Assembly: GCA_036269115.1 (NCBI GenBank)
Contig: DATAST010000063.1
Location: 19,674-83,673 of the forward strand
DNA length: 64,000 bases
From: Verrucomicrobiia bacterium
GTDB taxonomy: Bacteria; Verrucomicrobiota; Verrucomicrobiia; Limisphaerales; UBA11358
Reading direction: 5' to 3'
In this document: positions 34,740 through 57,896 of the stretch, piece after piece
Numbering within the stretch: the first letter of the stretch is position 1
How the letters are laid out: each line of letters begins with the position of its first letter
Position numbers and translations under genes: made by a program
Notes under the pieces: model-generated
The model's database searches: none
The model's input: only the letters and a program-made list of their open reading frames with translations
Told to the model about the DNA's origin: nothing

Positions 34740-35180
34740 ATGAAATGGGACAATTCAACTGAAACGGAAGCAGCACCCGCGTCCGCGGGCAACCAAATCC
34801 GGCTGCCTGCGGGCATCCTGGGATTTGAGCACATCAAAGAGTACGTGCTGCTCGCGAACCCGGCGGAGATGCCATTTGCCTGGTTGCGCCCCGCCGAAAG
34901 CGCGCCACTTGCGTTTGTCGTCATTAATCCGTTCTATGCTATGCCGGATTATGCGCCGGATGTCCCGGATGCGGACGTAGAATTTCTTGGCCTCAAAGAG
35001 CCTGCGGACGCTCTTCTCTTCAGCATCGTCACGTTGCAAGGTTCAAACCGGGCCTCGCTCAATTTGAAAGGGCCCATCGTCGTCAATCGTCATACGCACA
35101 TCGGCAAACAGGTGATTATCGCGAACGCCTCGAATTATTCCGTGGAACATCCTTTGCCAGTGGCCGCCGCCACGGTGTAA
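34740..35180 (+). CDS. fliW: Flagellar assembly factor FliW
   Basis: GILGFEH, AFVVINPF and NLKGPIVVN motifs. Confidence 0.95.
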   Translation: MKWDNSTETEAAPASAGNQIRLPAGILGFEHIKEYVLLANPAEMPFAWLRPAESAPLAFVVINPFYAMPDYAPDVPDADVEFLGLKEPADALLFSIVTLQGSNRASLNLKGPIVVNRHTHIGKQVIIANASNYSVEHPLPVAAATV

Positions 35181-35191
35181 CATGCGATTCC

Positions 35192-35416
35192 ATGCTGATC
35201 CTTTCCAGAAAATCAGGCGAAAGTATCGTGATCGCCGGGAATATCCGCGTCAAAGTTGTGCGCGTCGAAGGCGAGACCGTCAAGATTGGCATCGAGGCGC
35301 CGTCTTCCGTTCCTGTTCATCGGCAGGAAGTTTACGACGAAATTCAGCGCAGCAACCAGCAGGCCGCGACGCCGCCCAGTACGCCGTTGCCGAAATTGAC
35401 ACCGCCAAAAAAATAG
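35192..35416 (+). CDS. csrA: Carbon storage regulator CsrA
   Basis: MLILSRKSGESIVI...VKIGIEAP..VPVHRQE. Confidence 0.98.
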   Translation: MLILSRKSGESIVIAGNIRVKVVRVEGETVKIGIEAPSSVPVHRQEVYDEIQRSNQQAATPPSTPLPKLTPPKK

Positions 35417-35540: not shown

Positions 35541-38500
35541 ATGACTATGTCCATGAAAAAGAACGGTTCCACCTCGTTGGAATCCCCGGCCAGGACAAAT
35601 ACCAATGCGGGGACGACGGCTTCTAAACCGACGCTGCCAGCCGGTTCCTTGGAAAGACAAGATCAGCCAAACAAACCCGCCACCGCGGACTCTTTGGTTT
35701 CGGTCATTATCCCATGCTACAATCAGGCGCACTTTTTGACCGAGGCTGTCGAGAGCGTCATCCATCAAACATTTACTCACTGGGAAATTATTGTCGTCAA
35801 TGACGGCAGTCCGGATAATACCAAAGATGTATTCGAAAGCCTCGCGCGTCGTTGGCCCGGACGCACCTTGCGTTATCTGGAAAAACAAAATGGAGGTCTG
35901 GCCGATGCGCGTAACGCGGGTATCGCTATTGCCCGCGGTAAATACATTCTGCCGCTGGATGCAGATGACAAGGTGCATCCCGAGATGCTCTCAAAGACGG
36001 TGTCGTTGCTGGAAGCGACCCCGGATATCGCCATTGCCTACACGGACCTAATCCATTTCGGGGCCCGGAACGGTTTGGTGCAAGCGGCTGAATATGACTT
36101 CGCCGAAATCTGTAAGAATAACCGCCTTAACTATTGTTCGCTTTATCGCCGTGAAGCCTGGGAGACTGTGGGCGGTTATCAAACCGATATGCTTTGGCAG
36201 GGCTACGAGGACTGGAATTTCTGGATCGGCTGTGGGGAGCGTGGTTTTAAGGCAAAACGGATTCCTTTGCCTCTTTTGTTTTACCGCATTAAAGACAGCA
36301 GCATGTACACTGTCGCCTTGCAGCATGACCGGGAACTCCGCGCCGAGATTATCCTGAATCATCCGGGCCTTTATTCCCCCGAAACGGTTGCTGCGGCAAA
36401 GGCGCTTATTGATGAGGCCGGATTGACGCCGCGACTCAAGGCGGCGCAGCGTCCAAAACCCGCAATGCCACCGATCAAGAATGCCAGGCCGGAGGGCGGA
36501 GTCGCCGTTTCAAACCGATGGACCGTTTTTCCCGAGTCGCGATTGGCCCATCAGTTTTTGGACGGATTGGAAGGTCTCGAAATTGGAGGCAGCAGTCATA
36601 ATCCGTTTGGCCTGAAAACCAAAAACGTGGATTACACCGCAGACCTGATGACCGTCCATAAGGAGGAGGAAGTCAAAATGTGCGGTCGCGCCCTGAGCGT
36701 CGATATTGTAGCGCCCGGCGATGCGTTGCCTGTGGCAGATGGATCGCAGGATTTTGTCATTTCCTCGCATGTCATCGAACATTTTTTCGATCCGATAAAG
36801 GCAATCAAAGAATGGCTGCGCGTGGTCCGCCCGGGCGGCTTTATTTTTATCATCGCGCCCCATAAGGAACGCACGTTCGACAAAACCCGCACGCGAACGC
36901 CGTTGGCTGAACTACTCGACCGTCATTCCGGGAAAATCCCTCCGCCGGCTGTTGATACGCATCATCACTACACCATTTGGACTACCGAGGACTTGATCGA
37001 GTTATGCCGTCATTTGGAATGGAATGTAGTCGCTTGCCAGGACGTGGACGATAAAGTGGGAAATGGATTTACCGTGGTCATTCAAAACCCGCCGCGCGTG
37101 GTCTCTCCGAATGAAAATCAAGCCGATGCTGTGGCTATGAAATCAAAATCAGCGCAGCCGGACGCCCCGCTGGTCTCGGTCATCGTGCCCACGTTTAACC
37201 GCCCTGAACTGTTGGTCAAGGCGTTACGCAGTATTTTAAATCAGACATTCAGAAATTTCGAAATCATCGTGGTAAACGATTGCGGTTGCGACGTGGAACC
37301 CACGGTGGCGCAATTGGGTAATCAACCTATCATTTGCCTGCGGCATGAAACCAATCGGGGCCTCCCGGCCTCCCGTAACACTGGCCTGCGTGCCGCCCAC
37401 GGCAAGTATGTCGCCTACCTTGACGATGACGATCTGTACTATCCGGAACATCTGCAAACTCTGTTGAGTTATCTTGAATCGCATCCGGGAACGGTTGCCT
37501 ACACAGACGCCAATTGTACCCACCAGGAAAAAGTGAACGGCCAATGGACGACCGTCCGGCGGGACGTGCCTTATTCTTACGACTGGGACAATGACCGGAT
37601 TCTGGTTGAGAATTTCGTTCCCAGCTTATGTTTCATGCATGAAAAAGCGTTTCTGGAAAAATCCGGATATTTTGATGAAACGCTCCGCCGGCATGAAGAT
37701 TGGGATCTTTGGATCCGGCTGTCCCGGCACTTTTCGTTCGCGCACCTTCCGCGGGTGACGTGTGAATTTCTTCGGCGCAATGACGCATCGTCGATGACGA
37801 TGCAAAATCTTGCGCCCTTCGTGGAAACGATGAAGCGCGTTCACGCGAAGTGCGCCGCGTACACATCCGGCCGGCCGGATATCGAGGAATGTCAGAAGGC
37901 CAGGCTGGAAGACCTTGAGGAGTTGGCGCGCAGCCAGTCCAATCCGGCTAAATTCGCCGTCGGCGTTCTGACCATCGATCCGAAAGACACGGCGTGCGCT
38001 TACCTGAGGCTTACCGCGCCCCTCGGCCGCCTGCAGGATTGTCATGAAATCGTGAACTTATCGGTTTGTGATTTGAACAACGGAAAGCTAAAAATTGAAC
38101 CGCGTCTCCTGGGCATGGCCCGTGTCCTGGTAGTGCAGCGCGGCATGGCGGCTTGCTTGCCCTGGCAAACCTTGCGAAAGGCGATAACGAACGCAGCGGT
38201 AAGAATTATTTTTGAGCTCGATGACGCGCTCACCCTGATTCCGCGTGACCACCAGGGCTACCAATATTTCAAATCCATCCGACCTCGTGTCGAAGACTAT
38301 TTGGAAAATGCGGATATGGTGACGGTCTCGACGCCGAAACTGAAACAGCTTTATTCATACTTCAACGAAAACATTGAGGTGCTGCCCAATACCGTGGACG
38401 CCGGGGTCTGGCTCTCGCCGGAACGAAAACGTCCGGCAACCGAAAAAGTCTCCATTCTTTTCAGCGGCACTATCACGCATGAACATGATTTGGCGCTGAT

Positions 38501-41500
38501 CGAGAAAGCCATCGAACGAATCATTCACGAATTTCCCGAACGGGTGGAATTCCTGTTTTGGGGCAACGCGCCTGCCACCCTGAAGCATTTTCCACAAGTT
38601 AAGGCGGTTGGGAGCTTCATTCAGAAATACACGGATTATGCCCGGCAGCTCAAATCATTGTCCGTGGATTTGGCGCTCGTTCCTTTGGAGTTGACGCCCT
38701 TTAATCGCGCGAAATCGCCCATCAAATGGCTGGAATATTCGGCCTGCAGAATTCCGGCGATTTTCACCAACATTGAAGCCTACAGTCAGGTGGTAGAACA
38801 TCAAAAAACCGGATGGCTCGTGCCAAACACCACGGATGCGTGGTATGAGGCAATGAAAACGTTCATCCAGGACCGTGCATTGCGGCGGACCATCGCCGGG
38901 AATGCCCATCGAAAAGTGCTGTCTGAGTGCGCGTTACGGCCACATGCAAAGCTTTGGCTTCGAGCGTACGAAAAAGCTCTCTCGTCGCCGCCACGAAAGC
39001 CAGTGGATCGATCGCCACAGATTTCCATTATTATTCCCACCTTCAATAATATTGGCCTGACTCGCCAATGCATCAGCTCCATCTTGAGCAACACACCGCA
39101 AGGCCTCTATGAGATTGTCGTCGTGGATAACGCTTCCACCGACGGCACGCCGGCTTATCTTAAGCAGGAAGAAGACGCGGGCAACATGCGCGCCATACTC
39201 CAGTCGCGCAATTCCGGGTTCGCCAAGGGCTGCAATGTAGGAGCGAAGGCGGCGAAATGTCCCGTTCTGGTTTTTCTGAATAATGATACCGTGGTGACAG
39301 AAGGCTGGCTTAGCGCGCTTGTTACGGCCGCCAGGGAATCGAAAGCCGGGGTTGTCGGCGCGAAATTACTCTACGCAGACGGAACCATCCAGCATGCGGG
39401 AATTGAGTTTATCAATGGCATCCCCGACCATCCGCACCGTCATGCATCCGCAGACTTGCCGGCAGTAAACAAGCGGCGCGAACTGGACATGGTCACTGGC
39501 GCGTGTTTAACGACTTCGCGCGATTTATTTCTGTCCATCGGCGGTTTCGACGAAGTCTTCCAAAACGGCGTTGAAGATATCGATTACTGCCTGCGCGTGC
39601 GTGCTCTGGGCCACAAGGTGGTTTATGAGCCTCAATCAGTGGTCTACCATCTGGAAGGGCAGAGCAGGGGACGATTCGACCATGTTAAAGAGAATTTGAA
39701 AATTTTCTTCGAGCGGTGGTCCGGTTCCTTTAACAAGAATTTCTCCTTTATTGTTCCGTCAAAACCAAAGCCTATCCCCGCCAGCCGGAGTGTGTTGTTG
39801 TCCGACGATTCTTCGCCCGCTCCGGTTAAAGCCGAAAAGCCAATTGTCGTTTCATGGGAAGGCTCATTTCTCGATTACGGCAGCTTGTCCCATGTTAATC
39901 GTGAACTGGCCGGGCAATTGCGAAGCGCGTCTAACTTAAAAATCCATTGCCTGCCGATAGACCGATCGGGAGCGGCGCCTGCTGGAAAAGTTTGGCCGGA
40001 ACTGGCGCAGCATCTTTCCGCTCAAGTGGTCGTCCCTGATGTAACCGTGCGCCATGCCTGGCCGCCCAATTGGACCCGTCCGGTTGCCGGCAAACTTGCG
40101 GTCATCCAGCCCTGGGAATTTGGCTCTCTGCCGCGCCAATGGGTGAGCCAGGCGCAGCACGTGGACGAATTTTGGGTTCCATCGCATTACGTCCGAGATG
40201 TGTATATGGCTTCGGGCATTCCGGGGCATAAAGTAATAGTCGTGCCGAACGGCGTGGATGGGGAAAAATTTAATCCGCAGGCCGCGCCGATGAAATTGGC
40301 CACGCAGAAAAAATTCAAATTCCTGTTTGTGGGCGGAACGATTGGACGCAAAGGGCCGGATTTGTTGTTGCAGGCCTATCTGAAACAGTTCACCGATGCG
40401 GATGATGTTTGCCTGGTGATCAAAGATTTTGGAGGCGGTGGTGTTTATGCGGGACAAACGTTTGAAAAACAAATTCGTGCCGCGCAATCGGTCGCGCATG
40501 CGCCGGAAATTCTCTACCTGAACGAAGAACTGGCACCCGACTCGTTGCCCGGACTTTACACTGCGTGTGATTGCCTGGTTCTGCCGTATCGTGGCGAAGG
40601 TTTCGGCTTGCCAGTCCTTGAGGCAATGGCTTGTGGCCTGCCTGTCATTGTCACCGCAGGCGGAGCGACGGATGATTTTGTCCGGGCTGGATTTGGCTGG
40701 CGCATTCCCGCCGGCCGCAAAGTTTTCGGCCGCGAGGTTAGCGGCATGGAACTGGCCGGGGATGGCTGGTTGCTCGAACCCGACCTCGCCGCGCTTGGCG
40801 GCGCTATGCATGGCGCATTTGCAAATCCGGCAGAGGCACGCGAGCGCGGGCGTCACGCAAGCTTGCATGCGCGGGAAAACTGGTCGTGGAAAAAATCCGC
40901 CTCCATCGTCGCCGACCGAATTCGTAGCCTCGTAGGGCAGGCATCTTGCCTGCCAGTTAGGGCGGCTTCCAGCCGCCCGTTGCCACCCGTCGCCCTTCTT
41001 GGGAACTTGAACGAAGCCCGCGAATTCTTCGGAGTCAAAAAACTTGAAGGCGCATGGAATGCCGCACTAAAGGCAATCGCCTGCCGTCCATATCATCCTG
41101 AGGCATACTTATTACTGGCGGAAATCTCAATTGCAGCGGGCGACGCCGCGAGGGCCCGTCAATGCGCGCAACATGCCCGCGCGCTTGCACCTGGTTGGAG
41201 TTCGGCGAAGCAATTCCTTAATCGGCCACTCAAAGGCGGCGCAAAATTGGCGTGGCTAAAACCTCCGGATGCGATCCAAAATTCAAAAACAAAGGTCCAA
41301 AGCCTATCGGTATGTTTGATCGCTAAGAACGAAGAAAAATTCCTCGCCCAATGCCTTAAATCGATTCGCGACGTTGCGAAACAGTTGATCGTCGTGGATA
41401 CGGGTTCATCGGACCGAACCATCGAGATTGCAAAGGAATTTGGCGCTGAAGTTTATTCTCACGATTGGAACGATGATTTCTCCGCTGCTCGCAATGTGGC

Positions 41501-42914
41501 GCTCGAGCATGCCACGGGCGATTGGATTCTGATACTGGACGCGGATGAAGAACTTGTGGCCGCACAACACACTAAATTGCAATCCGATATCAATAACGCG
41601 GGAGTGATCGCCTATCGTTTGCCCCTGGTCAATGCAGGCCAGGAAGCCGAGGGGCAAAGCTATGTGCCGCGCCTGTTTCGCAATGTGCCCGGCGCGTTCT
41701 TTGCCGGACGGATTCACGAACAGGTGTTCCCGAGCCTCCTGCCTCTGTGCAAATCGTGGGGATTGAAAACGGCGATGGGCTTCGCCCGGATTTTGCACCA
41801 CGGCTACAGCAAGGAAACCGCGGCTGGAAAGATCGCGCGCAACTTGCCATTGCTCCGTAGAGCCTGTGAGGAAAATCCGCGCGACATGAACCTGGTGATG
41901 AATCTCGGCCTGGAACTCGTGCGGTCGGATAACCTGGCGGAAGGCATCGAGAAATACCGCGAAGCGTTCACTCTGATGTCGGAACTGCCGGCGTCCGATG
42001 TCGCGCCGGAACTGCGCGAGGTCCTGCTGACGCAATTTACCAGTCATCTTTACAAAGCTCACCGTCATGAAGAGGTGGTTGGTATCCTAAGCTCGCAGGC
42101 GTCCAAAAAAGGCGGACTCACAGCCTCGTTGCACCTGGCGTTGGGGCTTTCACAATTCGAATTGAGGATTTATCCCGAAGCGGCGGAGCAAATGCGCCAG
42201 TGCCTCGCCAAACGGAATCAGCCGGCCCTGTCGCCCATTAACAAAGATATTCTCACGGCCATGCCAAACCATTGCCTGGCTTTGGCCCTGGCCAAAAGTA
42301 ACGACCCGGCGAACGCCGAAAAGGCGTTCCAGGCTGCGTTGTCCGAACCCGGTCACGGCGAAAATATCGTATTGGATTATGCCAAATTCCTCGTCGGCTC
42401 GAACCGGCCCGTCGATGCATTGCAGAAACTGCATGAACTTGTCGCCTCGAATTGCCGTAATGCCATCATTTGGCGCACGGGCGCTGAAATCGCCCTGGGC
42501 CGTCCGGACTTTTTGAAATTCGCGCTCGATTGGACCGGTGAGGCCATGCGGTACGTGGAGGACGACTCGCTCATTATCGCTCAACGCGCCGAAGCCGTAA
42601 TGCTGAGTGGAGATACTGCGGCAGCGGCCCAATTATGGGAGAAGGTTTGGGACAACGGCCAACAGCCGCGTGCGCTCGCGGCGTTAATCCTGTGCGAGAC
42701 GATCGGTTCTGAAAATATCCACGTACCCGACGACGGTCCACAGGAAGCGTCCGCAAGCCGCGAATTCATCGCATGGTACCAGAAATTAATCACGATGCGC
42801 GCAAATACGGTTGCCAATGCATTGAACGGCCAATTGGACCGACTATCCCGCGTGCTGCCCACCGCCGCTAAAAAAATCGAGACTGCTCTGGCATCAACAC
42901 TCACCTGTGCGTAG
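35541..42914 (+). CDS. 2457-aa multidomain glycosyltransferase/methyltransferase (GT2-MTase-GT2-GT-B-GT2-GT4-TPR-GT2-TPR)
   Basis: Four GT2 starts (VSVIIPCYN, VSVIVPTFN, ISIIIPTFN, LSVCLIAKNEE). One SAM-MTase (LEIGG...SHVIEH). Two GT-B units (ELDD...KWLEYSA; YRGEGFGLPVLEAMACG). TPR-like helices. Confidence 0.93.
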   Translation: MTMSMKKNGSTSLESPARTNTNAGTTASKPTLPAGSLERQDQPNKPATADSLVSVIIPCYNQAHFLTEAVESVIHQTFTHWEIIVVNDGSPDNTKDVFESLARRWPGRTLRYLEKQNGGLADARNAGIAIARGKYILPLDADDKVHPEMLSKTVSLLEATPDIAIAYTDLIHFGARNGLVQAAEYDFAEICKNNRLNYCSLYRREAWETVGGYQTDMLWQGYEDWNFWIGCGERGFKAKRIPLPLLFYRIKDSSMYTVALQHDRELRAEIILNHPGLYSPETVAAAKALIDEAGLTPRLKAAQRPKPAMPPIKNARPEGGVAVSNRWTVFPESRLAHQFLDGLEGLEIGGSSHNPFGLKTKNVDYTADLMTVHKEEEVKMCGRALSVDIVAPGDALPVADGSQDFVISSHVIEHFFDPIKAIKEWLRVVRPGGFIFIIAPHKERTFDKTRTRTPLAELLDRHSGKIPPPAVDTHHHYTIWTTEDLIELCRHLEWNVVACQDVDDKVGNGFTVVIQNPPRVVSPNENQADAVAMKSKSAQPDAPLVSVIVPTFNRPELLVKALRSILNQTFRNFEIIVVNDCGCDVEPTVAQLGNQPIICLRHETNRGLPASRNTGLRAAHGKYVAYLDDDDLYYPEHLQTLLSYLESHPGTVAYTDANCTHQEKVNGQWTTVRRDVPYSYDWDNDRILVENFVPSLCFMHEKAFLEKSGYFDETLRRHEDWDLWIRLSRHFSFAHLPRVTCEFLRRNDASSMTMQNLAPFVETMKRVHAKCAAYTSGRPDIEECQKARLEDLEELARSQSNPAKFAVGVLTIDPKDTACAYLRLTAPLGRLQDCHEIVNLSVCDLNNGKLKIEPRLLGMARVLVVQRGMAACLPWQTLRKAITNAAVRIIFELDDALTLIPRDHQGYQYFKSIRPRVEDYLENADMVTVSTPKLKQLYSYFNENIEVLPNTVDAGVWLSPERKRPATEKVSILFSGTITHEHDLALIEKAIERIIHEFPERVEFLFWGNAPATLKHFPQVKAVGSFIQKYTDYARQLKSLSVDLALVPLELTPFNRAKSPIKWLEYSACRIPAIFTNIEAYSQVVEHQKTGWLVPNTTDAWYEAMKTFIQDRALRRTIAGNAHRKVLSECALRPHAKLWLRAYEKALSSPPRKPVDRSPQISIIIPTFNNIGLTRQCISSILSNTPQGLYEIVVVDNASTDGTPAYLKQEEDAGNMRAILQSRNSGFAKGCNVGAKAAKCPVLVFLNNDTVVTEGWLSALVTAARESKAGVVGAKLLYADGTIQHAGIEFINGIPDHPHRHASADLPAVNKRRELDMVTGACLTTSRDLFLSIGGFDEVFQNGVEDIDYCLRVRALGHKVVYEPQSVVYHLEGQSRGRFDHVKENLKIFFERWSGSFNKNFSFIVPSKPKPIPASRSVLLSDDSSPAPVKAEKPIVVSWEGSFLDYGSLSHVNRELAGQLRSASNLKIHCLPIDRSGAAPAGKVWPELAQHLSAQVVVPDVTVRHAWPPNWTRPVAGKLAVIQPWEFGSLPRQWVSQAQHVDEFWVPSHYVRDVYMASGIPGHKVIVVPNGVDGEKFNPQAAPMKLATQKKFKFLFVGGTIGRKGPDLLLQAYLKQFTDADDVCLVIKDFGGGGVYAGQTFEKQIRAAQSVAHAPEILYLNEELAPDSLPGLYTACDCLVLPYRGEGFGLPVLEAMACGLPVIVTAGGATDDFVRAGFGWRIPAGRKVFGREVSGMELAGDGWLLEPDLAALGGAMHGAFANPAEARERGRHASLHARENWSWKKSASIVADRIRSLVGQASCLPVRAASSRPLPPVALLGNLNEAREFFGVKKLEGAWNAALKAIACRPYHPEAYLLLAEISIAAGDAARARQCAQHARALAPGWSSAKQFLNRPLKGGAKLAWLKPPDAIQNSKTKVQSLSVCLIAKNEEKFLAQCLKSIRDVAKQLIVVDTGSSDRTIEIAKEFGAEVYSHDWNDDFSAARNVALEHATGDWILILDADEELVAAQHTKLQSDINNAGVIAYRLPLVNAGQEAEGQSYVPRLFRNVPGAFFAGRIHEQVFPSLLPLCKSWGLKTAMGFARILHHGYSKETAAGKIARNLPLLRRACEENPRDMNLVMNLGLELVRSDNLAEGIEKYREAFTLMSELPASDVAPELREVLLTQFTSHLYKAHRHEEVVGILSSQASKKGGLTASLHLALGLSQFELRIYPEAAEQMRQCLAKRNQPALSPINKDILTAMPNHCLALALAKSNDPANAEKAFQAALSEPGHGENIVLDYAKFLVGSNRPVDALQKLHELVASNCRNAIIWRTGAEIALGRPDFLKFALDWTGEAMRYVEDDSLIIAQRAEAVMLSGDTAAAAQLWEKVWDNGQQPRALAALILCETIGSENIHVPDDGPQEASASREFIAWYQKLITMRANTVANALNGQLDRLSRVLPTAAKKIETALASTLTCA

Positions 42915-42999
42915 CAGCGGACATGAGTCCGCTCTGACTAAACAAAGCGCTCAAGTATCCTGGTTGGTTGGATTAATGGATTGGGGCGACCTATATGTG

Positions 43000-43875
43000 G
43001 GGCAAGGCGTCCGCTAGCGAATGGTAGGGCGGAAGTGCCCTTCCGCCAGGCACACGGCGTAAGCTGGGTGCCGTTCAACATTCGGCTTCCCTGTTTGTCC
43101 GATCAGAGAAACGTCAGCCGCTGATTGTAAAATCGTGCGAAATGACTGCCAGTGGCGCTGCCACCGAAACACGCGAAAGGATAAAACTGCATTCGTCATG
43201 CAAAAGGCAAAAGGCGCAAGTGGCGCTATCACCGGCCGCGCGAACCATTTTTGCCGCCGTTTCACATTTTACGTGTATATGCGAGTAAATGAGGAAACGG
43301 CGACAGACAATTGCGTAAACAGGCCGTCTCTATTGAGAACTTTGGCAAAACAGGACGTGTAAATGAGACGGTGATTTTTTGTCCGCTGAAACGGCGAAAA
43401 CATCGAGCGCGAAATGCGCGAAAGGGATTAGCCACAAAAGAGGCACAAAGACCGCAAAAGAAAATCTTTATCCAACCGAGATACGCGGGTCTCTGGCCTC
43501 CGGAGCGCCAGGGCGAAGGAGGCTAGCTAAAAGCCCGTCAGGGCTGACATATATGTAGCCCAGGACAAGCGATTCTTCGAGCGCCGTCCTGGGTTAACCA
43601 TCAAAGAAAATCAGCCGCTGACTGCGAAACCGCGCGCCTGTCCGCTCGTAGCTTCTGAGCGAAGGCGGAAGAGCGCGACTCTGATCTGCGGCCTCCCCTC
43701 CGCTCTTTCAACCGCGAAATGACTGCAAGTGGCGCTGCCACCGCAAATCTGATCTACGGCTCTGCCCTTTGCACCTGACCCCTGCACCTTCGCACAAGGC
43801 TACGGAGGGCAGGCCCTCCTTCGCGCAAGGCTTCCAGCCTACGCCAAGCTTCGGCGAACGAGACGGAGGGCAGGC
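43000..43875. repeat. Field of short REP-like palindromes
   Basis: GTGGCGCTGCCAC at 43152 and 43729 (also 4642, and reversed at 58382). CCTTCGC..AAGGCT(T/A)CGG modules also occur near 1520 and 53190-53240. Further hairpins are present. Confidence 0.7.
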
Positions 43876-43897
43876 AAGTTTCCATTTTTACATATAT

Positions 43898-44056
43898 GGT
43901 GTGGAAACTGGAAACTTCGGGAAACGAATTTGGAAACGAAGTTGTTTCGAGAACCGAGAAGCGCGTTTTTGCTGGCGAATTTGAGCATGACAGGAAACAA
44001 GCGAAGTCGCGCCGGGAGGAAACTTCGAGGTGTTTTTTGACGGTCCGAAGTTTCCT
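43898..44056. repeat. 159-bp direct repeat, copy 1 (copy 2 at 48344-48502)
   Basis: Same length and high identity, with iterated GGAAAC and a GGAAACTTCGG/CCGAAGTTTCC inverted pair. Confidence 0.9.
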
Positions 44057-44480
44057 TCGGCGGGCGCGCGGGCGCCGCAGTGGCGGCCCAATCCATAATC
44101 CTGCCAGGCCCGGTGCCATCATCGGGCGAGACTTTGGTTTGTCGGATGGATTGGCGGGTTCGGGGACCCGGCCCAAAGGTTGGCTCAACTGGAAAAAATC
44201 CCGCGAAAAATCTCTCCCACAGGACCCCAGAGTACAATCGGCCTCAAAGGGAGGTGGCTAAATCACCGCTTACAGTTCATGTAGTTTCCGACTGTAAAGA
44301 CCTGCTGAGTCACTTCTGATCCCAAAGTCGTATCCGTAGCGGTGCTGCTCGAATTTGCCGGTATATAATGAATATAAGAATACACCATTAGTCATCTCTG
44401 CCCCTTCACGGCTGCTGACGCGTTATAGGAAAAGCTCATGTTCGCCGCGACCCAGTGGCATACGTGCAATTCAAACATAA

Positions 44481-44534
44481 TTTATCGTTTAACGATAAAA
44501 AAGTGTTGACACGCGGGATTTTTAAGTTTACGAT
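44481..44534 (+). promoter_or_regulatory. Palindromic operator plus sigma-70 promoter of the DUF2975-HTH operon
   Basis: TTTATCGTT-T-AACGATAAA (44481-44499), then TTGACA (44506-44511), 17 nt, TACGAT (44529-44534). Confidence 0.8.
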
Positions 44535-44581
44535 GCGTCGTTGAATGTGAAATTAACCATTAATATTTAGATTATGAGATT

Positions 44582-45085
44582 ATGAAAAATTCTCAAAACA
44601 AAGCGGATATCATCAGAGTAAGCAAAATCATCAGGAACTTTTTGTTTGCCGGATTGGTTTTTTGGGCCATAGCAATTCCCGCGGGGTTGTTTTCCTACAT
44701 CGGCTCATGGGTCGGGACCGGGACACTCACGCCGGGAGCACACTATTTGCACGTTGGCAGAGCCTTGCTAATGGTGCTCTGCATGACCGCAAATTTAAAG
44801 CTCTTCCGTTTCTTTGACCGGCTCAAGAATGGGTATTTGTTCGATGCGAAAACCGTCCGTTATTTAGATCACGCTGGCAGATGGATTGTGGCACTTTGGT
44901 TTTTTGAGATTTTGTTCCACGGAATCGGACATCAATTCGGCCAGATTGGAAGTCAGTTTTTCCCAAAATCAATTGGATGGGGGGATTTTGGCGGCAGTTT
45001 GTTCGCGGGTTTAACGCTCATTTTCGTGGCCTGGTTGCTGAAGGAGGCGCAGGAACTCCAGCAGGAAACGGAATTAACCGTTTAA
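44582..45085 (+). CDS. DUF2975-like membrane protein
   Basis: Four TM segments, LKNGYLFDAKTVRYL, and C-terminal KEAQELQQETELTV. Confidence 0.85.
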   Translation: MKNSQNKADIIRVSKIIRNFLFAGLVFWAIAIPAGLFSYIGSWVGTGTLTPGAHYLHVGRALLMVLCMTANLKLFRFFDRLKNGYLFDAKTVRYLDHAGRWIVALWFFEILFHGIGHQFGQIGSQFFPKSIGWGDFGGSLFAGLTLIFVAWLLKEAQELQQETELTV

Positions 45086-45089
45086 GTTT

Positions 45090-45338
45090 ATGCCTATCAT
45101 TGTCAATCTGGACGTGGTCCTCGCGCAACGGAAAATGCGGCTCAATGAGTTGGCTGAAGCCGTGGACATTACGCCGCAAAATCTGTCCATCCTCAAAACC
45201 GGAAAAGCCAAGGCGATCCGATTCAGTACACTTGAAGCGCTCTGCGGAACGCTCGCATGTCAACCCGGGGAAATTTTAGAATTTCGCCCTAAAACCCCGA
45301 TAAAGAAAGTTGCCTCTCAAGAGGGTGTAGAGCACTGA
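45090..45338 (+). CDS. XRE-family HTH regulator (YozG-like)
   Basis: MPIIVNLDVVL...ITPQNLSILKTGKAKAIRFSTL...CQPGEIL. Confidence 0.93.
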   Translation: MPIIVNLDVVLAQRKMRLNELAEAVDITPQNLSILKTGKAKAIRFSTLEALCGTLACQPGEILEFRPKTPIKKVASQEGVEH

Positions 45339-45407
45339 AGTCCAGCAGATTCAAGAAATTGAAAGACGCTTGCTCGAATCGAGAAACTTGATATGAATAG
45401 AGCACCT

Positions 45408-45463
45408 CAGAGTGGCCGGTTTTGATTCAACCCGGTTGGCTGGTTTTGAAGTGACCGGTGACA
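45408..45463 (+). mobile_element. Isolated IS21-family terminal sequence
   Basis: Ends in ...GGTTTTGAAGTGACCGGTGACA (reverse complement TGTCACCGGTCACTTCAAAACCAGCCA), with an internal doubled TGGC(C/T)GGTTTTGA; nearly identical to 48285-48341. Confidence 0.75.
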
Positions 45464-45907
45464 GTAATTGTCCGATGAAGCAGAATATCATGACCAACTG
45501 CCGCCTGGTCAAATAGCCCTACTCATAGTCATTTCCACATGATTCAGCCGACCTCAAAACGAACAATGCATGCTATGGGCGACCACTTTATCGACCCAAT
45601 GAAACCGAACCGTTATTTTTGGGCTGGGGCGGTTTCTGAACGATTCCAAAGGTGGCGACACCTGAAGAAATCTTAAAAACAGGCAGTCGCGATTTCGACG
45701 AATATACCCAACAAGCAGCTTGAACTGAATACGCTCCGGGACGGCTCAAGTCGAAAAATCATGCGCCGCTCTTTCCAAATCATCCGCCAGTCGCGCTACG
45801 AGCGAATCACCGCCCACGTACCATCCACGTTGCAACGCTTTCCATTGTTCCTTAATCGGTGCCCCCTTCACCGTCAACTAAGGTTCCCATCTCTGCCTCC
45901 TTTACAG

Positions 45908-46906
45908 TCAGGCGCTGCGGATCCTGGCATAGGCGTAACAATCGCGGGGCTTTGGAGAAACATTCGGGTGAATCGCCCATGACTTAAGAATTCCCTCGCG
46001 CTCAAATCCAGCCTTTTCAAGCACCCGGGCGGAAGCACCATTCTCTACATCGCAAACTGCCCAGACGCGAAATACCGACGGCTGCGTAAATGCCCATTCG
46101 ACCACTGCTTGCACCGCCTCAGTCATGAATCCGCGATTCCAATATTGACGCGCCAGGACGTAGCCGATTTCGATTCCATTTCTCTTCGGCCAGGCGGAAA
46201 TTGCCCCGACGACCTTACTGTCGGTGCGGTTACAGAGCATCCAGGGGATCTCATCCCCGGATTGCCAACCGGCGAGTCGGCGTTCGATGGCAGTCTGCGC
46301 GTCACTCAACGTTTTGTGTGGCTGCCAGCTGAGGTATCGAGTCACTTCGGCATCCTGGCCGTAGGCGGAAAAAACGAGCGGCGCATCGTCGCGGCGGGGT
46401 CTCCGCAATAATAACCGCGCCGTGTTGAGCGTTTCCGGGGCTTTGGGCTTCGGCGCATTGTCAGGTGGCGTCCAATCAAACCACGGACCAATTAATTTGC
46501 TTGCCGGAATCTGCGACCAATATTTAACCAACATCGCTGCCTTTTTGACCGACTTGGCAACATCTGGTTCGGAAAACAACGCCTCGGCATCCCTTAAAAC
46601 CTGTGGCCGGCCGAACTGCGCGATTAAGTAAAAAGGCAATTTTTTCAAACTCGCCTCGAAATTACCGTGCCCTAGTTGTTCAATCGCCTCTCGACATGTG
46701 ATAGGGCAGGGTGGCTCCAAAGCGAGCAATAAATTGGTTGCGTTTTCGTATACCGGCCATCGATAAGCCAGGCAGTCGGATGCTATGGCAAAGAGAACGC
46801 GGAAGACCTCCTGCTGGTCCTGGTTTCGCAACGTCCCGGCCAACTCAACGAGCTGGCCAGTGCTTTTTACCTCGGCTATTTGCCTGGAAAGGGCTTCGGC
46901 GTTCAT
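45908..46906 (-). CDS. Unknown N-terminal domain fused to a RimJ/RimL-type GNAT acetyltransferase
   Basis: C-terminal LNTARLLLRRP, EIGYVLARQYWNRGFMTEAV and NGASARVLEKAGF. Start set at MNAEAL; the ORF is open further upstream. Confidence 0.85.
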   Translation of the reverse strand: MNAEALSRQIAEVKSTGQLVELAGTLRNQDQQEVFRVLFAIASDCLAYRWPVYENATNLLLALEPPCPITCREAIEQLGHGNFEASLKKLPFYLIAQFGRPQVLRDAEALFSEPDVAKSVKKAAMLVKYWSQIPASKLIGPWFDWTPPDNAPKPKAPETLNTARLLLRRPRRDDAPLVFSAYGQDAEVTRYLSWQPHKTLSDAQTAIERRLAGWQSGDEIPWMLCNRTDSKVVGAISAWPKRNGIEIGYVLARQYWNRGFMTEAVQAVVEWAFTQPSVFRVWAVCDVENGASARVLEKAGFEREGILKSWAIHPNVSPKPRDCYAYARIRSA

Positions 46907-47116
46907 ACACGTGGCGACCTCTTCATGGGGTGACCTGATGGCCATTTCCCATTTTTGAGGGGCTCTCGACAAACTTTCCTGATTTTGAATCCCGCTCGAA
47001 GTACAACGTCCGTATTTGCCGCTTAGGAATGCCCTTATCTCTGGCATCCTCCCAGTAGACGCCTGGTCCATAATCATAAAGAGAGACAGTAACACTGTCA
47101 TCCTTTCCCCAAACAT

Positions 47117-47161
47117 CATTAAAGGAAAAGTATATAAGATGTTCGTGTCAGGTCTGTTGGG
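47117..47161. repeat. 45-bp site, copy 1 (copy 2 at 53458-53502; 42/45 identical)
   Basis: CATTAAARGAAAAKTATATAAGATGTTCKTGTCAGGTCTGTTGGG at both positions. Confidence 0.9.
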
Positions 47162-47175
47162 GCAAGTTGCTTTGT

Positions 47176-47340
47176 GACGTACCCACCGCCGGAGCCATCC
47201 TCGACCCGTTCCTGCACCACGCCCAGGTCATCGCCATCACCGGCAAAAGTTATCGCGTCAAGGAAGCGCCGGTGGTTGCCCAGGAAAACAAGAAAAGCAG
47301 AAAGTCCAACGAGCCTTCGACCGCCGGGGCCGCGAGCTAA
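47176..47340 (+). pseudogene. istB: C-terminal fragment of IS21 helper ATPase IstB
   Basis: The frame reads DVPTAGAILDPFLHHAQVIAITGKSYRVKEA, matching the IstB AILDRxLHHxxxxxxxGxSYR motif. Confidence 0.8.
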
Positions 47341-47477
47341 GGCTCGCAGCTCGGCCCCGGCTCGTTTTAACTCGCTGCTTGAGGATTATGGGAAACACTC
47401 GATTTATGGTCCGAGTCAGCCATACTGACGACATGGTGTTCGGCAGCACGAGAGCATTTTGCGGCCGACTCCGTCAA

Positions 47478-48254
47478 ATGAGCAATATGAAATCTCTCTA
47501 CCGGTTCGTGCTTGCTGCTGCGTTCCTGCTCGGTTTGACCGGCATCGCCGCCGCACGCATCGTTAGTATTTGGTCGTATCAAGAACTTCTTGAGAAATCT
47601 ACCTTGGTGGTCATCGCCACTCCTGCGGCCACCAACGATACCAAAGAGCATATCGACCTCCCAGGCTTCAATGGCGAGCATGTCATAGGCGTCGAAACCA
47701 GATTTACCATTTCCGCTGTTCTCAAGGGCAATAAGGCGCTAAGGGCTATTGTCCTTCACCATTACCGCACCGCCGATGGCGTAAATTATGCTCACGTTGT
47801 TAACGGCCCGAGTTTTGTCTACTTCGCCGCCCCTGGCGAAAATCCGACATCGATTCACCGGACGTATGTTCTATTCCTCCTGCGGGAAGCTGATGGCCGC
47901 TACGCGCCAGTGGTCGGGCAGACGGACCCGGGACTTGCAGTCAAGGAACTTGAAGGTGTGTACGCGAGCGCAGTTACTGAAACCCAGACGAAGCTTGGAA
48001 TCGACATCGCGAACGCTCTCAGGCAATGCCAGTCGATCCGCGCCGGAATGACACGCGCAGAGCTTTCCAAGGTTTTTTACACTGAAGGTGGACTTTCGAC
48101 CGTGACGCATCGGACTTACGTTTATCGCGATTGTCCATACATCAAGGTTGATGTTGATTTTGCCCCTTCAGCTCCGAAGCAGGATGTGGAAAAGCCGACT
48201 GATAATGTAATCAGAATCTCGAAGCCGTATCTGGACTGGAGTGTCGCTGATTGA
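47478..48254 (+). CDS. Hypothetical exported protein, apparently two domains
   Basis: Signal-peptide-like MKSLYRFVLAAAFLLGLTGIAAA within an uninterrupted ORF; start uncertain. Confidence 0.75.
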   Translation: MSNMKSLYRFVLAAAFLLGLTGIAAARIVSIWSYQELLEKSTLVVIATPAATNDTKEHIDLPGFNGEHVIGVETRFTISAVLKGNKALRAIVLHHYRTADGVNYAHVVNGPSFVYFAAPGENPTSIHRTYVLFLLREADGRYAPVVGQTDPGLAVKELEGVYASAVTETQTKLGIDIANALRQCQSIRAGMTRAELSKVFYTEGGLSTVTHRTYVYRDCPYIKVDVDFAPSAPKQDVEKPTDNVIRISKPYLDWSVAD

Positions 48255-48284
48255 AAGGGACGCCTAACACCGCGCAGGGGCCAG

Positions 48285-48341
48285 CAGAGTGGCTGGTTTT
48301 GATTCGACCCCGGCTGGCTGGTTTTGAAGTGACCGGTGACA
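48285..48341 (+). mobile_element. IS21-family right terminal sequence
   Basis: Same sequence as 45408-45463, downstream of the istB fragment in the expected orientation. Confidence 0.75.
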
Positions 48342-48343
48342 AG

Positions 48344-48502
48344 GGTGTGGAAACTGGAAACTTTGGGAAACGAATTTGGAAACGAAGTTGTTTCCAGGAC
48401 TGAGAAGCGCGCTTTTGCTGGCGAATTTGAGCATGACAGGAAACAAGCGAAGTCGCGCCGGGAGGAAACTTCGAAGGGTTTTTTGACGGTCCGAAGTTTC
48501 CT
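48344..48502. repeat. 159-bp direct repeat, copy 2
   Basis: Matches 43898-44056 and begins 2 nt after the IS21 end. Confidence 0.9.
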
Positions 48503-48792
48503 CCAGCAGGGCGGGTGGGCGGGTTGGCACCGCGGCCAGGACGCCTTATTTGAATTTACCTCCGATAAGGAGAAGATGCTTGAGTTTTTCAAGAGTCTGG
48601 CCCAACAACGTTTTCGTTTCGTGTAACGCCGAATCAAGATCGGCAATCGATGCACGCTGAGCGGCAGATTCGTTTTCTGCCTGCGCCTTAACTGCCGTGC
48701 GCCTGCGCGAAACTGAGCTGCGGCCGTTCCATCATGGCGAAAGCAGTGGTGCTTTTTATTGTTTGCGTTATTCAACAGCGTTATAAAGTGAG

Positions 48793-49876
48793 ATGCCGAA
48801 CATGAACACCAGTAACGATTTTAAGAATCTCCAGGTGATTATTTTTGCAATGCGACCCGGCCGTCTTGCAATGTTTGAAAGGGCTGGAACCGTTGACGAA
48901 GACCATCTTGATGAATTGGATATTCCTGTTGATAACACCCAGTTTGTCGAACCGGTTGAATATTTTGAGCGAAGTAAAAACCAGCCGCTCATATGTTTGA
49001 TTTGCGATGAACAGAAGATCCTGCGCTATTTGGCCAAGGGTAACCGAAGAGGAACAGTTCGCTTTTCAGCAACAAAAGGATGCGGTGCTTTTGTCCTTTC
49101 AATTCGCCGGGTTGGATCGTAAGCGGCACCTGAATTTCTACTATGAAACGAGTGCTCCGCCCAAATCATATTTAGAAGGCCTTTCAAAATCGCGCCTACG
49201 CGAAGATGCGATGATTGATAACGACCTCAATCGATTTCCTGGGTTTAAAGAAATCAAAAGATTCGTTCAGAATGCAGTGCAGTTTACGGATAATAGAGTA
49301 GTTCTGACCGTGTTGTTGGTTAATCGGCAGCCCTTGGAAACGCTCATTGGTACTGATTTGATTTACTATAACGAGACTTTCAAATCATTCGTAATGGTCC
49401 AATACAAAGCGATGGAAAAAGAGGGAAGCGATTCGGTTTTTAGAATACCAAATCTCGGTCTCAACCGTGAAATTGACAACATGCGTGCCTTTTTCGATGA
49501 GATGCAGTCCATTCCAGCTGACCAAGCAAAGGAGCCGACAGGATTTCGATTCCATTACAACCCATTTTTCCTAAAATTCTGTCCTCGGACAATTGAAAGA
49601 CCGGACGAAGTTGAACTGACACCGGGCATGTACATGCCAATAGATTATTGGGCTCGCCTTAGTTCTGGCTCTCACCTTCAAGGGGAAAGCGGTGGAAAGG
49701 CGCTACGTTTTGAAAATGCTGGCCGATACATGAACAACTCAGACTTTGCGACATTGGTTAGCAAAGCATGGATAGGAACCCACATTGAACACTCCGCAAT
49801 AATCGAAAAGGTTGTGCGCCAAACGTTGGAAACAGGGAAATCCGTTACCATAGCACATGTGCGGCAAGATAGCTGA
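48793..49876 (+). pseudogene. Hypothetical gene split across two frames near 49050; C-terminal part has a PD-(D/E)xK-like motif
   Basis: Protein-like sequence in 48793.. up to YLAKGNRRGT continues in the 49007 frame (FQQQKDAV...GTDLIYYN...FVMVQYK). Confidence 0.6.
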
Positions 49877-49883
49877 GTCAGCT

Positions 49884-51302
49884 TTAGGTTGTGCGCTTGA
49901 CGGTAAGTATCGGCGATTTTCCAAGCACCGTCACCGTTTTCGATGCCCGTGTCAGGCAGACGTACAAAGCCTCGGCGTCCGGGAAGTCGGCAGCGTTTAG
50001 AATTAACGCATGGTCAAATTCAAGCCCTTTGACGAGTAATGGCGTGGCGAGGCACTTTGACCACGGCTTTCGTCCAATCTTGCGGATATGGTCCCGATGA
50101 CGCCAGGATGCCTCATGCAAAGGACGTTCTGTGGCACCCGCAGCCTCTTGCGCGGCTTGACGCAAACCGGACCAAATTTCCCTGCTTTTAAACATTGGCT
50201 TTTCTTCGAGAGCGAGGTAGGCGTCCATCACCGCCACGATAGTTCTGGTATCCTGTGATTCCCGAACTGTCTCCAGTGTGGCCGCAAGGTGCTTTAAATC
50301 TGGCCGTCTCGCGCGCGTCGGTTTCCCATCAATGACGGATTTCAGCACTGAATCTAAAAGTGCGGGAATTCGGGTCAGCCATTTTTCCGCGAATTCGCCG
50401 AGTACTTTTACCCGTGCCGGACCGGTGGCAACGTCAATTTTTTCAGCCCATCTCATCAAATCTTCTGCGTGGGCGTCTTCAAAAACGACGTAACGGTTTT
50501 GAAGGTGACCAGCCAAAAAGTGACATTGCTCCCGCCGCTGATATAAACCCACAACCGTTTCCGTCCCCACTTTCATTTTTTCAAGGCATTCACTTAAGGC
50601 TTGTCGTGCGGGGTCGCACTGTACGAATCGTACGCTGCCAACCTTCTGCAAATCTATGTCGCCGCCTTTAATCAGTGTTCGGCGGATTTCCAGTAGCCAT
50701 TTTCCCAACGGCTCGTTTTTCCCAACCCAGCGGTGGGGCGTTCTCAACTCACCAATAAGAGGAAATGTCTTTGCCACGGTTTCCCACGGCAGAGCGTGGG
50801 CCTTGTTCACTTTCGAAAACACGGATTGCAGCGGGTCCCCAAGTACCCGGCAGGGCAAAATGGAGGCGAGCGATTCGATCATGCTGTGCTGTCCCTTGCA
50901 GCAATCCTGGTACTCATCGACAAACACGCCTGCATAGGAAACCTGAAGCACTTCGCGGGCGACCCGCGCACACAAAATCTTTTTTGCCGCCGGACGTAAA
51001 AGTTGCCATTCCTCTCCTTTAGGCGTCAGCGTGTTCCAACCGCTTAACGTCGGAAATGCGGTGGCGTAGCGCAGGGCAAACGCATCGAGTGTGGCGATTC
51101 GATACGAATCCGGAGGCACGGCCATTATCGACATTCTGTCACGGATCGCTCTCACCCCCGCATGGGTATGGGTCAAGATCAGTTGCCTCCCGGTACAATG
51201 CAATGTGGCCTCAGAAATCAAATGCGTTTTACCGCATCCCGCCGGGGCCACTACCAGGGCGTGTTTACCACATGCCAAGACTTTTGCGAAGTCATCAGCC
51301 AT
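49884..51302 (-). CDS. UvrD/SF1 helicase, GajB-like
   Basis: APAGCGKT, LTHT, FVDEYQD, GDPLQSVF, VKGLEFD and YVCLTRA motifs; overlaps the end of the upstream nuclease gene. Confidence 0.9.
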   Translation of the reverse strand: MADDFAKVLACGKHALVVAPAGCGKTHLISEATLHCTGRQLILTHTHAGVRAIRDRMSIMAVPPDSYRIATLDAFALRYATAFPTLSGWNTLTPKGEEWQLLRPAAKKILCARVAREVLQVSYAGVFVDEYQDCCKGQHSMIESLASILPCRVLGDPLQSVFSKVNKAHALPWETVAKTFPLIGELRTPHRWVGKNEPLGKWLLEIRRTLIKGGDIDLQKVGSVRFVQCDPARQALSECLEKMKVGTETVVGLYQRREQCHFLAGHLQNRYVVFEDAHAEDLMRWAEKIDVATGPARVKVLGEFAEKWLTRIPALLDSVLKSVIDGKPTRARRPDLKHLAATLETVRESQDTRTIVAVMDAYLALEEKPMFKSREIWSGLRQAAQEAAGATERPLHEASWRHRDHIRKIGRKPWSKCLATPLLVKGLEFDHALILNAADFPDAEALYVCLTRASKTVTVLGKSPILTVKRTT

Positions 51303-53031: not shown

Positions 53032-53230
53032 AAATCGGCCTCGGCTACATGTGAAGGCGCATTTTCGCCGCAAAAACCGGGAATTTCTAGGTAAATCTTC
53101 TTCGCGGCGGTCGCAAATATATGCGAGCAATAGCAAAAGCCAGCAATCATTGCCTGTTTCAAAAAGTTTCAAATACATCCGCCTTCGCTCAGAAGCTTCC
53201 GCCTTCGCTTAAAGGCTTCCTCCTGCGCCA

Positions 53231-53366
53231 AGGCTTCGGCGAACAAGACGGCGAACAAGACGGCGGACAAGATGGCGCGACAGGGGTGCGCATAAATGCC
53301 GTGAGTGCCAAGCACGAAAGAGACAAGAGACAGAATTTAACCCCAAAGATCTTAACCCCAAAGATC
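53231..53366. repeat. Short tandem repeats: 12-mer CGGCGAACAAGA x~3.5 and 15-mer TTAACCCCAAAGATC x2
   Basis: Directly visible at ~53231-53272 and 53337-53366. Confidence 0.85.
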
Positions 53367-57871: not shown

Positions 57872-57896
57872 TTTAAATCCTCAAATTTATTCTATT

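Follow-up and report, generated by a model that had tools for sequence, protein, structure and literature searches.

The flagellar locus and its giant glycosyltransferase gene

The window analysed here, a stretch of 64,000 nucleotides (nt) from a soil Verrucomicrobiia bacterium (contig DATAST010000063.1 of assembly GCA_036269115.1), contains a run of flagellar genes on the plus strand, which extends over 37 kb (from about 5.7 kb to 42.9 kb) and ends in a giant gene coding for several glycosyltransferase (GT) domains. The first part of the run comprises flgB, flgC, fliE, fliF, fliG, fliI, fliM, flhB, flhA, fliA and motA, and the later part flgG, flgA, flgH, flgI, a gene for a rod-binding protein, flgN, flgK, flgL, fliW and csrA. 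As a preliminary description of this DNA had stated, the giant gene is a single uninterrupted 7.4-kb open reading frame (ORF), which closes the flagellar operon; it is preceded by flgK-flgL-fliW-csrA. FliW and CsrA are flagellin-specific regulators, known from the partner switch of Bacillus subtilis, in which FliW is the flagellin-sensing partner of CsrA. The end of the run is organised as follows:

34740..35180, plus strand: fliW (Pfam FliW, 119 bits)
35192..35416, plus strand: csrA, 74 amino acids (aa), MLILSRKSGESIVIAGNIRVKV... in the ORF list; 83-87% identical to the CsrA encoded at the same position in two relatives (L003 and L027)
35541..42914, plus strand: giant multi-glycosyltransferase gene, 2457 aa, ATG start, product predicted to be soluble

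An identical protein in the database begins four codons further downstream and is 2453 aa long. No internal DNA repeats able to cause misassembly were found within the giant gene, and its four GT2 modules share a mutual identity of only 20-33%; therefore, the gene is the product of neither misassembly nor recent internal duplication. The same module order is found in the relatives P0003 and P0005-P0007, which come from other samples and are 66-88% identical module by module; the identity of collinear relatives in independent assemblies is 70-85%. An assembly artefact or chimera was thus ruled out by the lack of internal repeats, the divergence of the GT2 modules and the collinearity of relatives from independent samples. 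In a hydrophobicity scan of the giant protein, no 19-residue window outside the buried GT4 core reached membrane-like values, and the protein is predicted to be soluble and to lack a membrane segment.

Architecture of the giant protein

Domains were assigned using Pfam and NCBIfam, structures were predicted segment by segment with AlphaFold2 (AF2) and compared using Foldseek, and the sequences of the PDB were searched with phmmer. From the N- to the C-terminus, the giant protein consists of a GT2, an S-adenosylmethionine (SAM)-methyltransferase, a GT2, a GT-B, a GT2, a GT4, tetratricopeptide repeats (TPR), a GT2 and again TPR. This is the order given in the preliminary description, including its count of six GTs and one methyltransferase; it is confirmed by the Pfam and NCBIfam mapping and, for the GT-B, by AF2 and Foldseek. 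Pfam places the front domains at aa 54-260 (GT2), 359-497 (class-I methyltransferase), 543-733 (GT2) and 1000-1130 (Glyco_trans_1_2), and the rear domains at aa 1159-1392 (GT2), 1497-1787 (GT4), 1842-1891 (TPR), 1913-2134 (GT2 of the Glyco_tranf_2_4/SunS type) and 2251-2326 (TPR). The corresponding stretches of DNA are:

35700..36320, plus strand: module 1, GT2 (GT-A) with the motifs DGS.D and LPLDADD (Pfam PF00535, aa 54-166 and onwards)
36528..37100, plus strand: module 2, class-I SAM-methyltransferase with GLEIGGS, SSHVIEHFFDP and RPGG (Pfam Methyltransf_11/23, Ubie)
37167..37739, plus strand: module 3, GT2 with the motif YLDDDD (NCBIfam and Pfam, aa 541-733)
37938..38960, plus strand: module 4, divergent GT4-type GT-B (AF2 and Foldseek)
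39015..39716, plus strand: module 5, GT2 of the Glyco_tranf_2_3 type with FLNNDT and GFDE..NGVED, the first module of the part common to most relatives
39858..40970, plus strand: module 6, GT4 containing the EX7E motif GEGFGLPVLEAMA (Pfam, motif conservation)
40971..41255, plus strand: TPR arm 1 (Pfam TPR_2/TPR_19; AF2 helices 6-84)
41256..41960, plus strand: module 7, GmaR/SunS-like protein-glycosylating GT2 with DTGS.DRT and LDADEE (PDB search, Foldseek)
41961..42911, plus strand: TPR arm 2, all-helical repeats extending over about 316 aa (AF2 pLDDT 89, OGT/SPY-like TPR matches)

Module 4 (aa 785-1160) is only weakly recognised by Pfam; its AF2 model (pLDDT 88) shows the two Rossmann domains of a GT-B fold, and its best Foldseek matches in the PDB are the GT4 enzymes BshA, PglA, PimA, MshA and SdgB (E about 1e-13). 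As module 4 folds as a GT-B, the count of six GT domains and one methyltransferase is correct. The modules are joined by short linkers of 21-97 aa, which are rich in proline, serine and lysine, and the signature motifs of all seven catalytic modules, which are of the DxD type in each of the four GT2 domains, are at least 95% conserved among 11-118 homologues. PDB sequence searches with the methyltransferase, the third GT2 (module 5, also called GT2c) and the GT4 yielded generic family matches only, and the methyltransferase matches of module 2 were weak.

The C-terminal TPR-GT2-TPR unit

The last 557 residues of the giant protein were used to search the PDB sequences, and the best match was the Listeria monocytogenes protein GmaR (22ao_A, E 6.8e-26), which aligned with query residues 22-162. 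The next matches were SunS (E 8e-16) and a ThuS-type enzyme (E 5e-11), and all three top matches glycosylate proteins or peptides. In the AF2 model of aa 1811-2457 (pLDDT 89), a GT-A domain lies between a short TPR arm and a long arm of helical repeats, and the unit is all-helical from its residue 281 onwards. Foldseek placed SunS and ThuS first (7msn and 7msk, E 8e-14, template modelling score normalised to the target 0.57-0.66), followed by the TPR domains of OGT and SPINDLY; the helical part of GmaR was not among the top 50 fold matches. In module 7, the motifs VVDTGS.DRT, W.DDF.AARN and LDADEE show at least 95% identity among 118 homologues, and alignment A1 has no variation in them. Judging by sequence and fold, the C-terminal unit is a GmaR-like protein glycosyltransferase.

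Other assignments fit less well. The catalytic domain between the TPR arms is a GT-A and not a GT-B, and the Maf family is absent among the 24 Pfam matches of the giant protein. With regard to the SunS family of glycocin glycosyltransferases, the NCBIfam model TIGR04195 reached 75 bits on the giant protein, far below its cut-off of 350. Furthermore, no glycocin precursor or transporter gene adjoins the giant gene, whose neighbours are flagellar genes on one side and genes for a DUF2975 and a GNAT protein on the other.

A family of minimal, split and fused forms

A word-based search yielded 862 relatives of 1,382-4,300 aa, most of which are labelled Verrucomicrobiae, and nine segments of the giant protein were mapped onto the best 120 of them. 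The ending GT4-TPR-GT2-TPR is present in 116 of these 120, mostly preceded by the third GT2, and all complete ones end in TPR-GT2-TPR. The N-terminal part is variable and contains, according to precomputed Pfam lists, domains such as GT11, FkbM methyltransferase, GT29, protein kinase, pyruvyl transferase, HAD and radical-SAM. When cluster representatives were searched exhaustively with a profile of the TPR-GT2-TPR unit, 9,872 of them matched at E <= 1e-30. The best 150 of these all have E-values below 1e-187 and a median length of 1,862 aa (range about 450 to 5,089 aa); in 141 of them, no more than 30 residues separate the end of the unit from the C-terminus. Clustering at 50% identity gives more than 150 clusters of proteins with about 650 to more than 5,000 residues. 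In an even sample of 300 other genomes of the phylum, only small GT2-TPR or GT4 matches and no full core were found, and the family is therefore concentrated in one order.

The minimal form of the family is a TPR-GT2-TPR gene of 644-720 aa directly after fliC with no other GT nearby, and the largest fusion in the fetched loci has 5,118 aa. It had been argued in the preliminary description that orthologues split into separate genes would speak for an assembly artefact or a recent fusion. Split forms do exist in distant relatives (1172 + 612 aa in L011 and 2070 + 660 aa in L012), but the conclusion drawn from them does not hold: the fused forms occur throughout the order, with collinear modules in independent assemblies, and the splitting therefore reflects an old continuum of fusion and fission rather than an artefact or a recent one-off event. 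In a tree of the TPR-GT2-TPR unit, the size classes are scattered (12 changes) in a homologue set that is biased to long proteins. A tandem double unit was observed in genome G364, where a single ORF of 1659 aa (L024:173-5152) encodes GT4-TPR-GT2-TPR-TPR-GT2-TPR; the same contig also has a separate minimal copy of 679 aa (L024:17960-19999), with the flagellar genes between the two.

Linkage to flagella across the order

The distribution of the family was studied in a sample of 301 genomes of the order, in which a strong match to the TPR-GT2-TPR unit defined the presence of the core and FliW served as flagellar marker. The core was found in 133 and FliW in 148 of the 301 genomes; 128 genomes have both, 5 only the core, 20 only FliW and 148 neither. 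FliW is thus present in 128 of the 133 core-positive genomes, and the core is missing from 148 of the 153 genomes without FliW. The five assemblies that have the core and no FliW are all only 66-82% complete. Overall, the core occurs in about 43% of the genomes and in 86% of the flagellated ones. The same pattern is seen within genera: two genomes of genus g1 have both and five have neither, and three genomes of genus g173 have both and one has neither.

The genes are also physically linked. In the 71 cases in which the core and fliW are located on one contig, fliW lies upstream on the same strand in 70, with a gap of less than 6 kb in 50. In the 20 loci of the order that were fetched, the general gene order is fliW-csrA-fliC-[0-15 kb]-GT, and a flagellin gene is present in 16 of them; one relative with 55% identity has the order fliW-csrA-fliC-giant gene with no other flagellar genes near. 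The genes in the gap between fliC and the GT in relatives include nucleotide-sugar genes, namely those for a cytidine monophosphate (CMP)-sugar cytidylyltransferase fused to an RraA-like domain and two uridine diphosphate (UDP)-sugar dehydrogenases, as well as a nucleoside diphosphate (NDP)-hexose C-methyltransferase, methyltransferases and a GT29-like protein. Together, these genes are what a flagellin glycosylation island contains.

A pair of genes recurs between fliC and the giant GT gene (L019:10034-12775, L020:9922-12586 and probably L017:10323-13166). The first encodes the fusion of a CMP-sugar cytidylyltransferase with an RraA-like/aldolase domain (about 440 aa) and the second a protein of about 455 aa with no Pfam match, which suggests that a CMP-activated acidic sugar is used in those relatives.

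Replacement of the N-terminal cassette

The nearest neighbour of the giant protein in the tree of the TPR-GT2-TPR unit is P0019 (2,053 aa), followed by P0003 (3,221 aa). Compared with the P0019 locus by blastn, the DNA is similar up to the last base of csrA at 35415, similarity is undetectable at 35416-39272, and it resumes inside the third GT2 domain and runs to the end of the gene; in the protein sequences, similarity is seen again from near the start of this domain onwards. The block GT2-MTase-GT2-GT-B of the giant protein, in which MTase stands for the methyltransferase, is replaced in P0019 by a methyltransferase and a different GT-B. The P0003 locus has the same cassette as the window (79.5% identity) and an additional 2.6 kb directly after csrA, which encode a region of unknown function, a methyltransferase and a GT11 domain. 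The front half of the giant gene thus differs in each of three genomes whose flagellar genes are about 80% identical, which points to a hotspot behind csrA at which modules are gained, lost or exchanged.

The contig of P0003 (L003-L004; GCA_035503455.1, DATJTK010000120.1), a 78%-identical relative, is labelled by NCBI with the acidobacterial name 'Candidatus Sulfotelmatobacter sp.'. Verrucomicrobiia metagenome-assembled genomes have the flagellar genes and giant GT gene in the same order, at 71-88% identity, and the contig is probably mis-binned.

Surroundings of the giant gene

Downstream of the giant gene, a segment of 16.7 kb separates it from a convergent fliC-fliD-fliS-GT2 cluster. The following features were found:

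42893..59596, no strand: 16.7-kb segment that L027, the closest relative, lacks (blastn comparison with L027 and L003)
59578..60663, minus strand: stand-alone GmaR-like GT2-TPR gene, 361 aa, a paralogue of module 7
61054..61482, minus strand: fliS
62574..63926, minus strand: fliD
G000:C63:84567-84974, minus strand: flagellin gene, just past the end of the window

L027 is a soil metagenome-assembled genome (MAG) labelled Verrucomicrobiia bacterium, whose flanking flagellar proteins are 78-87% identical, and its giant gene ends only 57 nt from the stand-alone GT2-TPR gene. Since the segment 42893-59596 has no counterpart in L027, it is an insertion between two convergent flagellar operons. It contains genes for a DUF2975 protein, a 403-aa GNAT protein, a Gabija pair, a 976-aa molybdoenzyme of the formate dehydrogenase type and fdhD. 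The resemblance of the last GT2-TPR part of the giant protein to the stand-alone GT, noticed in the preliminary description, amounts to 40% identity over 230 aa (E 7e-41). The genome encodes a single flagellin of 266 aa, which contains 26% serine and threonine overall and 35-50% in residues 131-190.

Proposed function and alternative explanations

The giant protein is probably a cytoplasmic megaenzyme, which O-glycosylates flagellin before its export. The link to flagellin, which had already been drawn in the preliminary description, is supported by synteny, by the co-occurrence with flagella and by the homology to GmaR, and modification in the cytoplasm fits a soluble protein with no membrane segment and with no export genes seen in its vicinity. 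The last GT2-TPR part had been considered as the enzyme attaching the first sugar; this role is supported by its presence in every relative and by its existence as a separate gene of about 650 aa right after fliC. The C-terminal TPR-GT2-TPR unit would dock flagellin and add the first sugar to serine or threonine residues of the central region rich in these residues. Experimental precedent for flagellin binding by TPR exists in FlmG (PMC7591256), and the same has been proposed for GmaR (PMC9638930). The GT4, GT2, GT-B, GT2, methyltransferase and GT2 modules, tethered by the linkers, would then extend and methylate the first sugar, giving an oligosaccharide of roughly six or seven residues from common cytoplasmic nucleotide sugars, and this elaboration would be completed in the cytoplasm before type-III export. 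The preliminary description had suggested that the upstream domains act in domain order and that the methyltransferase caps the glycan; the methyltransferase, second module from the N-terminus, may act at one step or another. The position after fliW-csrA would tie the synthesis to flagellin production. The N-terminal extender block would act as a swappable cassette, and close relatives would therefore make different glycans.

Several observations weigh against this interpretation. The source is an uncultured MAG. At E <= 0.01, the PDB sequence search matched no part of GmaR other than the GT domain; as the similarity does not extend beyond the catalytic domain, the unit has not been filed as a GmaR orthologue. 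The association between the core and FliW (Fisher p 1e-55) was calculated with kinship between the genomes ignored. Promoter, terminator and sigma-54 pattern scans around the giant gene gave nothing above chance. In this genome, the flagellin gene lies 22 kb from the giant gene because of the intervening insertion, and a second GmaR-like enzyme is encoded in the fliC-fliD-fliS cluster. Finally, no nucleotide-sugar genes adjoin the giant gene here. The preliminary description had pointed out the absence of sugar-nucleotide and export genes, and indeed none were seen flanking the giant gene in this window, but nucleotide-sugar genes do accompany the locus in relatives; the absence of nucleotide-sugar genes is local and not a trait of the family.

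It is tempting to go one step further and to picture a collinear assembly line, in which the C-terminal unit clamps and primes flagellin, the modules act in the order from the C- to the N-terminus and recombination in the linkers behind csrA swaps the outer cassette. The order would match the gradient of conservation, with the unit found in all relatives, the GT4 and GT2c in most of them, and the outer modules varying. This more specific model is speculative and has to be regarded as rather doubtful. If it were true, the outer sugars would be reprogrammed between strains as in O-antigen loci, but inside one reading frame, and the sequence of the glycan could be read and rewritten from the order of the domains.

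The presence of two GmaR-like enzymes raises the question of which one primes. The stand-alone GT2-TPR enzyme at 59578-60663 might add the first sugar in this genome; the giant protein would then act only as an extender, whose C-terminal unit either serves mainly to dock flagellin or attaches a second sugar or acts at a second site. In its favour, the stand-alone enzyme gives a somewhat better match to GmaR (E 1.4e-29), shares an operon-like cluster with flagellin and has been kept next to the giant gene in both of the closest relatives. However, its orthologues occur in only 2 of the 301 genomes of the order; in most of the order, the locus therefore encodes no GmaR-like enzyme besides the C-terminal unit. 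The unit is present in 128 of the 148 flagellated genomes and also stands alone right after fliC where no other GT is nearby, and its DxD and other catalytic motifs are at least 95% conserved, which argues against a purely docking role. A division of labour of this kind is therefore considered unlikely. Based on these distributions, the C-terminal unit likely acts as primer in general, with the stand-alone enzyme as a local addition, and either of them may prime in this genome.

Even if the giant protein glycosylates a flagellar protein, the substrate could be another exported one, such as FlgL, FlgK, FliD or the hook protein, instead of or besides flagellin. In this genome, the giant gene follows flgK-flgL-fliW-csrA and not fliC, and what the linkage statistics show is a connection with the flagellar system and not specifically with flagellin. 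On the other hand, the GT gene comes right after at least one fliC in most of the fetched loci, some of which have no hook-associated genes near, GmaR as the closest characterised enzyme acts on flagellin, and FliW and CsrA are specific for flagellin. A different substrate thus seems very unlikely, and flagellin remains the preferred one.

The giant protein could also be a synthase for a cell-envelope polysaccharide of the O-antigen type, of the kind that depends on an ABC transporter, and be encoded merely by chance beside flagellar genes. Polypeptides with several GTs and methyltransferase terminators are typical of such systems, for instance, ORF6 of Klebsiella O7 (PMC11231755) and WbdD (PMC3482155), and some relatives carry the JGI label 'O-antigen biosynthesis protein'. 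However, genes for an ABC transporter (Wzm/Wzt), for Wzx/Wzy or for a polyprenyl-phosphate primer were found neither in the window nor in the annotated flanks of the relatives, and the protein has no predicted membrane segment. Furthermore, its presence tracks flagella within genera, its gene lies downstream of fliW in 70 of 71 cases, and its end unit belongs to the branch of GT2 enzymes that glycosylate proteins or peptides. A membrane polysaccharide synthase was rejected for now on account of the lacking hydrophobic segment and transporter genes, and the explanation as a whole is highly improbable. An additional regulatory role of the C-terminal helical domain, which might bind FliW or CsrA and thereby couple the glycosylation capacity to flagellin translation, would be in line with the bifunctional nature of GmaR (PMC9638930), the fixed position of the gene directly behind fliW-csrA across the order and the long (about 316 aa) and conserved TPR arm 2, but it is exceedingly improbable, as no similarity to the linker and antirepressor domains of GmaR was detected and a MogR-type repressor was not seen, although none was sought, and it would in any case supplement rather than replace flagellin glycosylation.

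Comparison with known glycosylation systems

GmaR of L. monocytogenes (PDB 22ao) is a protein of 637 aa with the architecture GT-TPR-linker-antirepressor, which acts both as O-linked N-acetylglucosamine (GlcNAc) transferase of flagellin and as antirepressor of MogR (PMC9638930). The giant protein resembles GmaR in having a GT2 followed by TPR or helical repeats and in being encoded at a flagellar locus; GmaR is a cytoplasmic protein that modifies flagellin, as is predicted for the giant protein. In contrast to GmaR, which has one catalytic domain and adds a single GlcNAc, the unit of the giant protein has an extra N-terminal TPR arm and is joined to six more catalytic modules, and no similarity to the linker and the MogR-binding antirepressor part of GmaR was detected. 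SunS and ThuS (PDB 7msn and 7msk) share with it the combination of a GT-A and a helical-repeat domain, which in these enzymes holds the peptide or protein substrate. However, they form S-linkages on small ribosomal peptides encoded alongside, and neither a glycocin precursor nor a transporter is present here.

In its proposed logic, the giant protein is similar to FlmG of Caulobacter crescentus (PMC7591256) and to Maf: TPR bind flagellin and the fused GT modifies it in the cytoplasm before export. Neither of them is homologous to module 7. FlmG is a single-GT enzyme, in which N-terminal TPR are followed by a GT-B that transfers pseudaminic acid; Maf also has a single GT and a different fold. 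Several GT modules, sometimes together with a methyltransferase, are combined on one polypeptide in ORF6 of Klebsiella O7 (PMC11231755) and in WbdA/WbdD of Escherichia coli O9a (PMC3482155), and GT and methyltransferase modules are likewise found on one polypeptide in WsaE, which takes part in synthesising the S-layer glycan of Geobacillus (PMC2943079). As in the family of the giant protein, the modules of the O-polysaccharide enzymes are variably split or fused between serotypes. In contrast, these enzymes and WsaE work at the membrane on lipid-linked glycans, rely on coiled-coil rulers and on terminators and are encoded beside transporters. They have two to four modules, whereas the giant protein has seven catalytic modules, an end unit of the kind that acts on proteins and a linkage to flagella, and no export genes accompany it. 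None of the compared systems joins a protein-substrate primer and at least six extender modules in one soluble chain, and no description of the giant family was found in the literature searched.

Flagellin glycosylation is a known process, which is normally accomplished by separate small enzymes. Here, a whole glycan-building pathway appears to be fused to a protein-recognising primer in one soluble polypeptide. If this is true, the series of minimal, split and fused forms would be a natural test of why GTs fuse and of whether tethering to the substrate imposes order or processivity. The hypervariable cassette behind csrA would then probably diversify the flagellar surface in soil bacteria, where phages, grazers and immune-type recognition may be relevant. 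In addition, the modules could provide self-contained cytoplasmic parts for the engineering of protein O-glycosylation.

Further observations in the window

A 120-aa frame at 35182-35544 was considered as a new gene and rejected, as it is an out-of-frame read across csrA with no Pfam match; ORF callers that select the longest frame would miss csrA at 35192-35416. A sigma-54-like box with one mismatch, TGGAACATCCTTTGC, is located at 35143-35157 on the plus strand, at the end of fliW and 35 nt before csrA. Since sigma-54-like patterns occur in the window at chance level (7 found and 6.85 expected), the box is only a lead for a promoter of csrA and the giant gene.

In the inserted 16.7-kb segment, the Gabija pair is complete and consists of GajB (49884-51302, 405 bits) and GajA (51295-53178, 563 bits). 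An ORF of 521 aa within the flagellar operon (12723-14288, plus strand) has no Pfam match at E <= 1e-5; by its position, it may encode a divergent FliK or a hook-related protein. Between fliD and fliS, a gene for a protein of 242 aa (61841-62569, minus strand) with no Pfam match was found, whose homologues (29-70% identity) adjoin fliD, or lie between fliD and fliS where both genes are visible, in L003, L019, L024, L025 and L027. The protein may thus be an uncharacterised flagellar-locus protein of the order.

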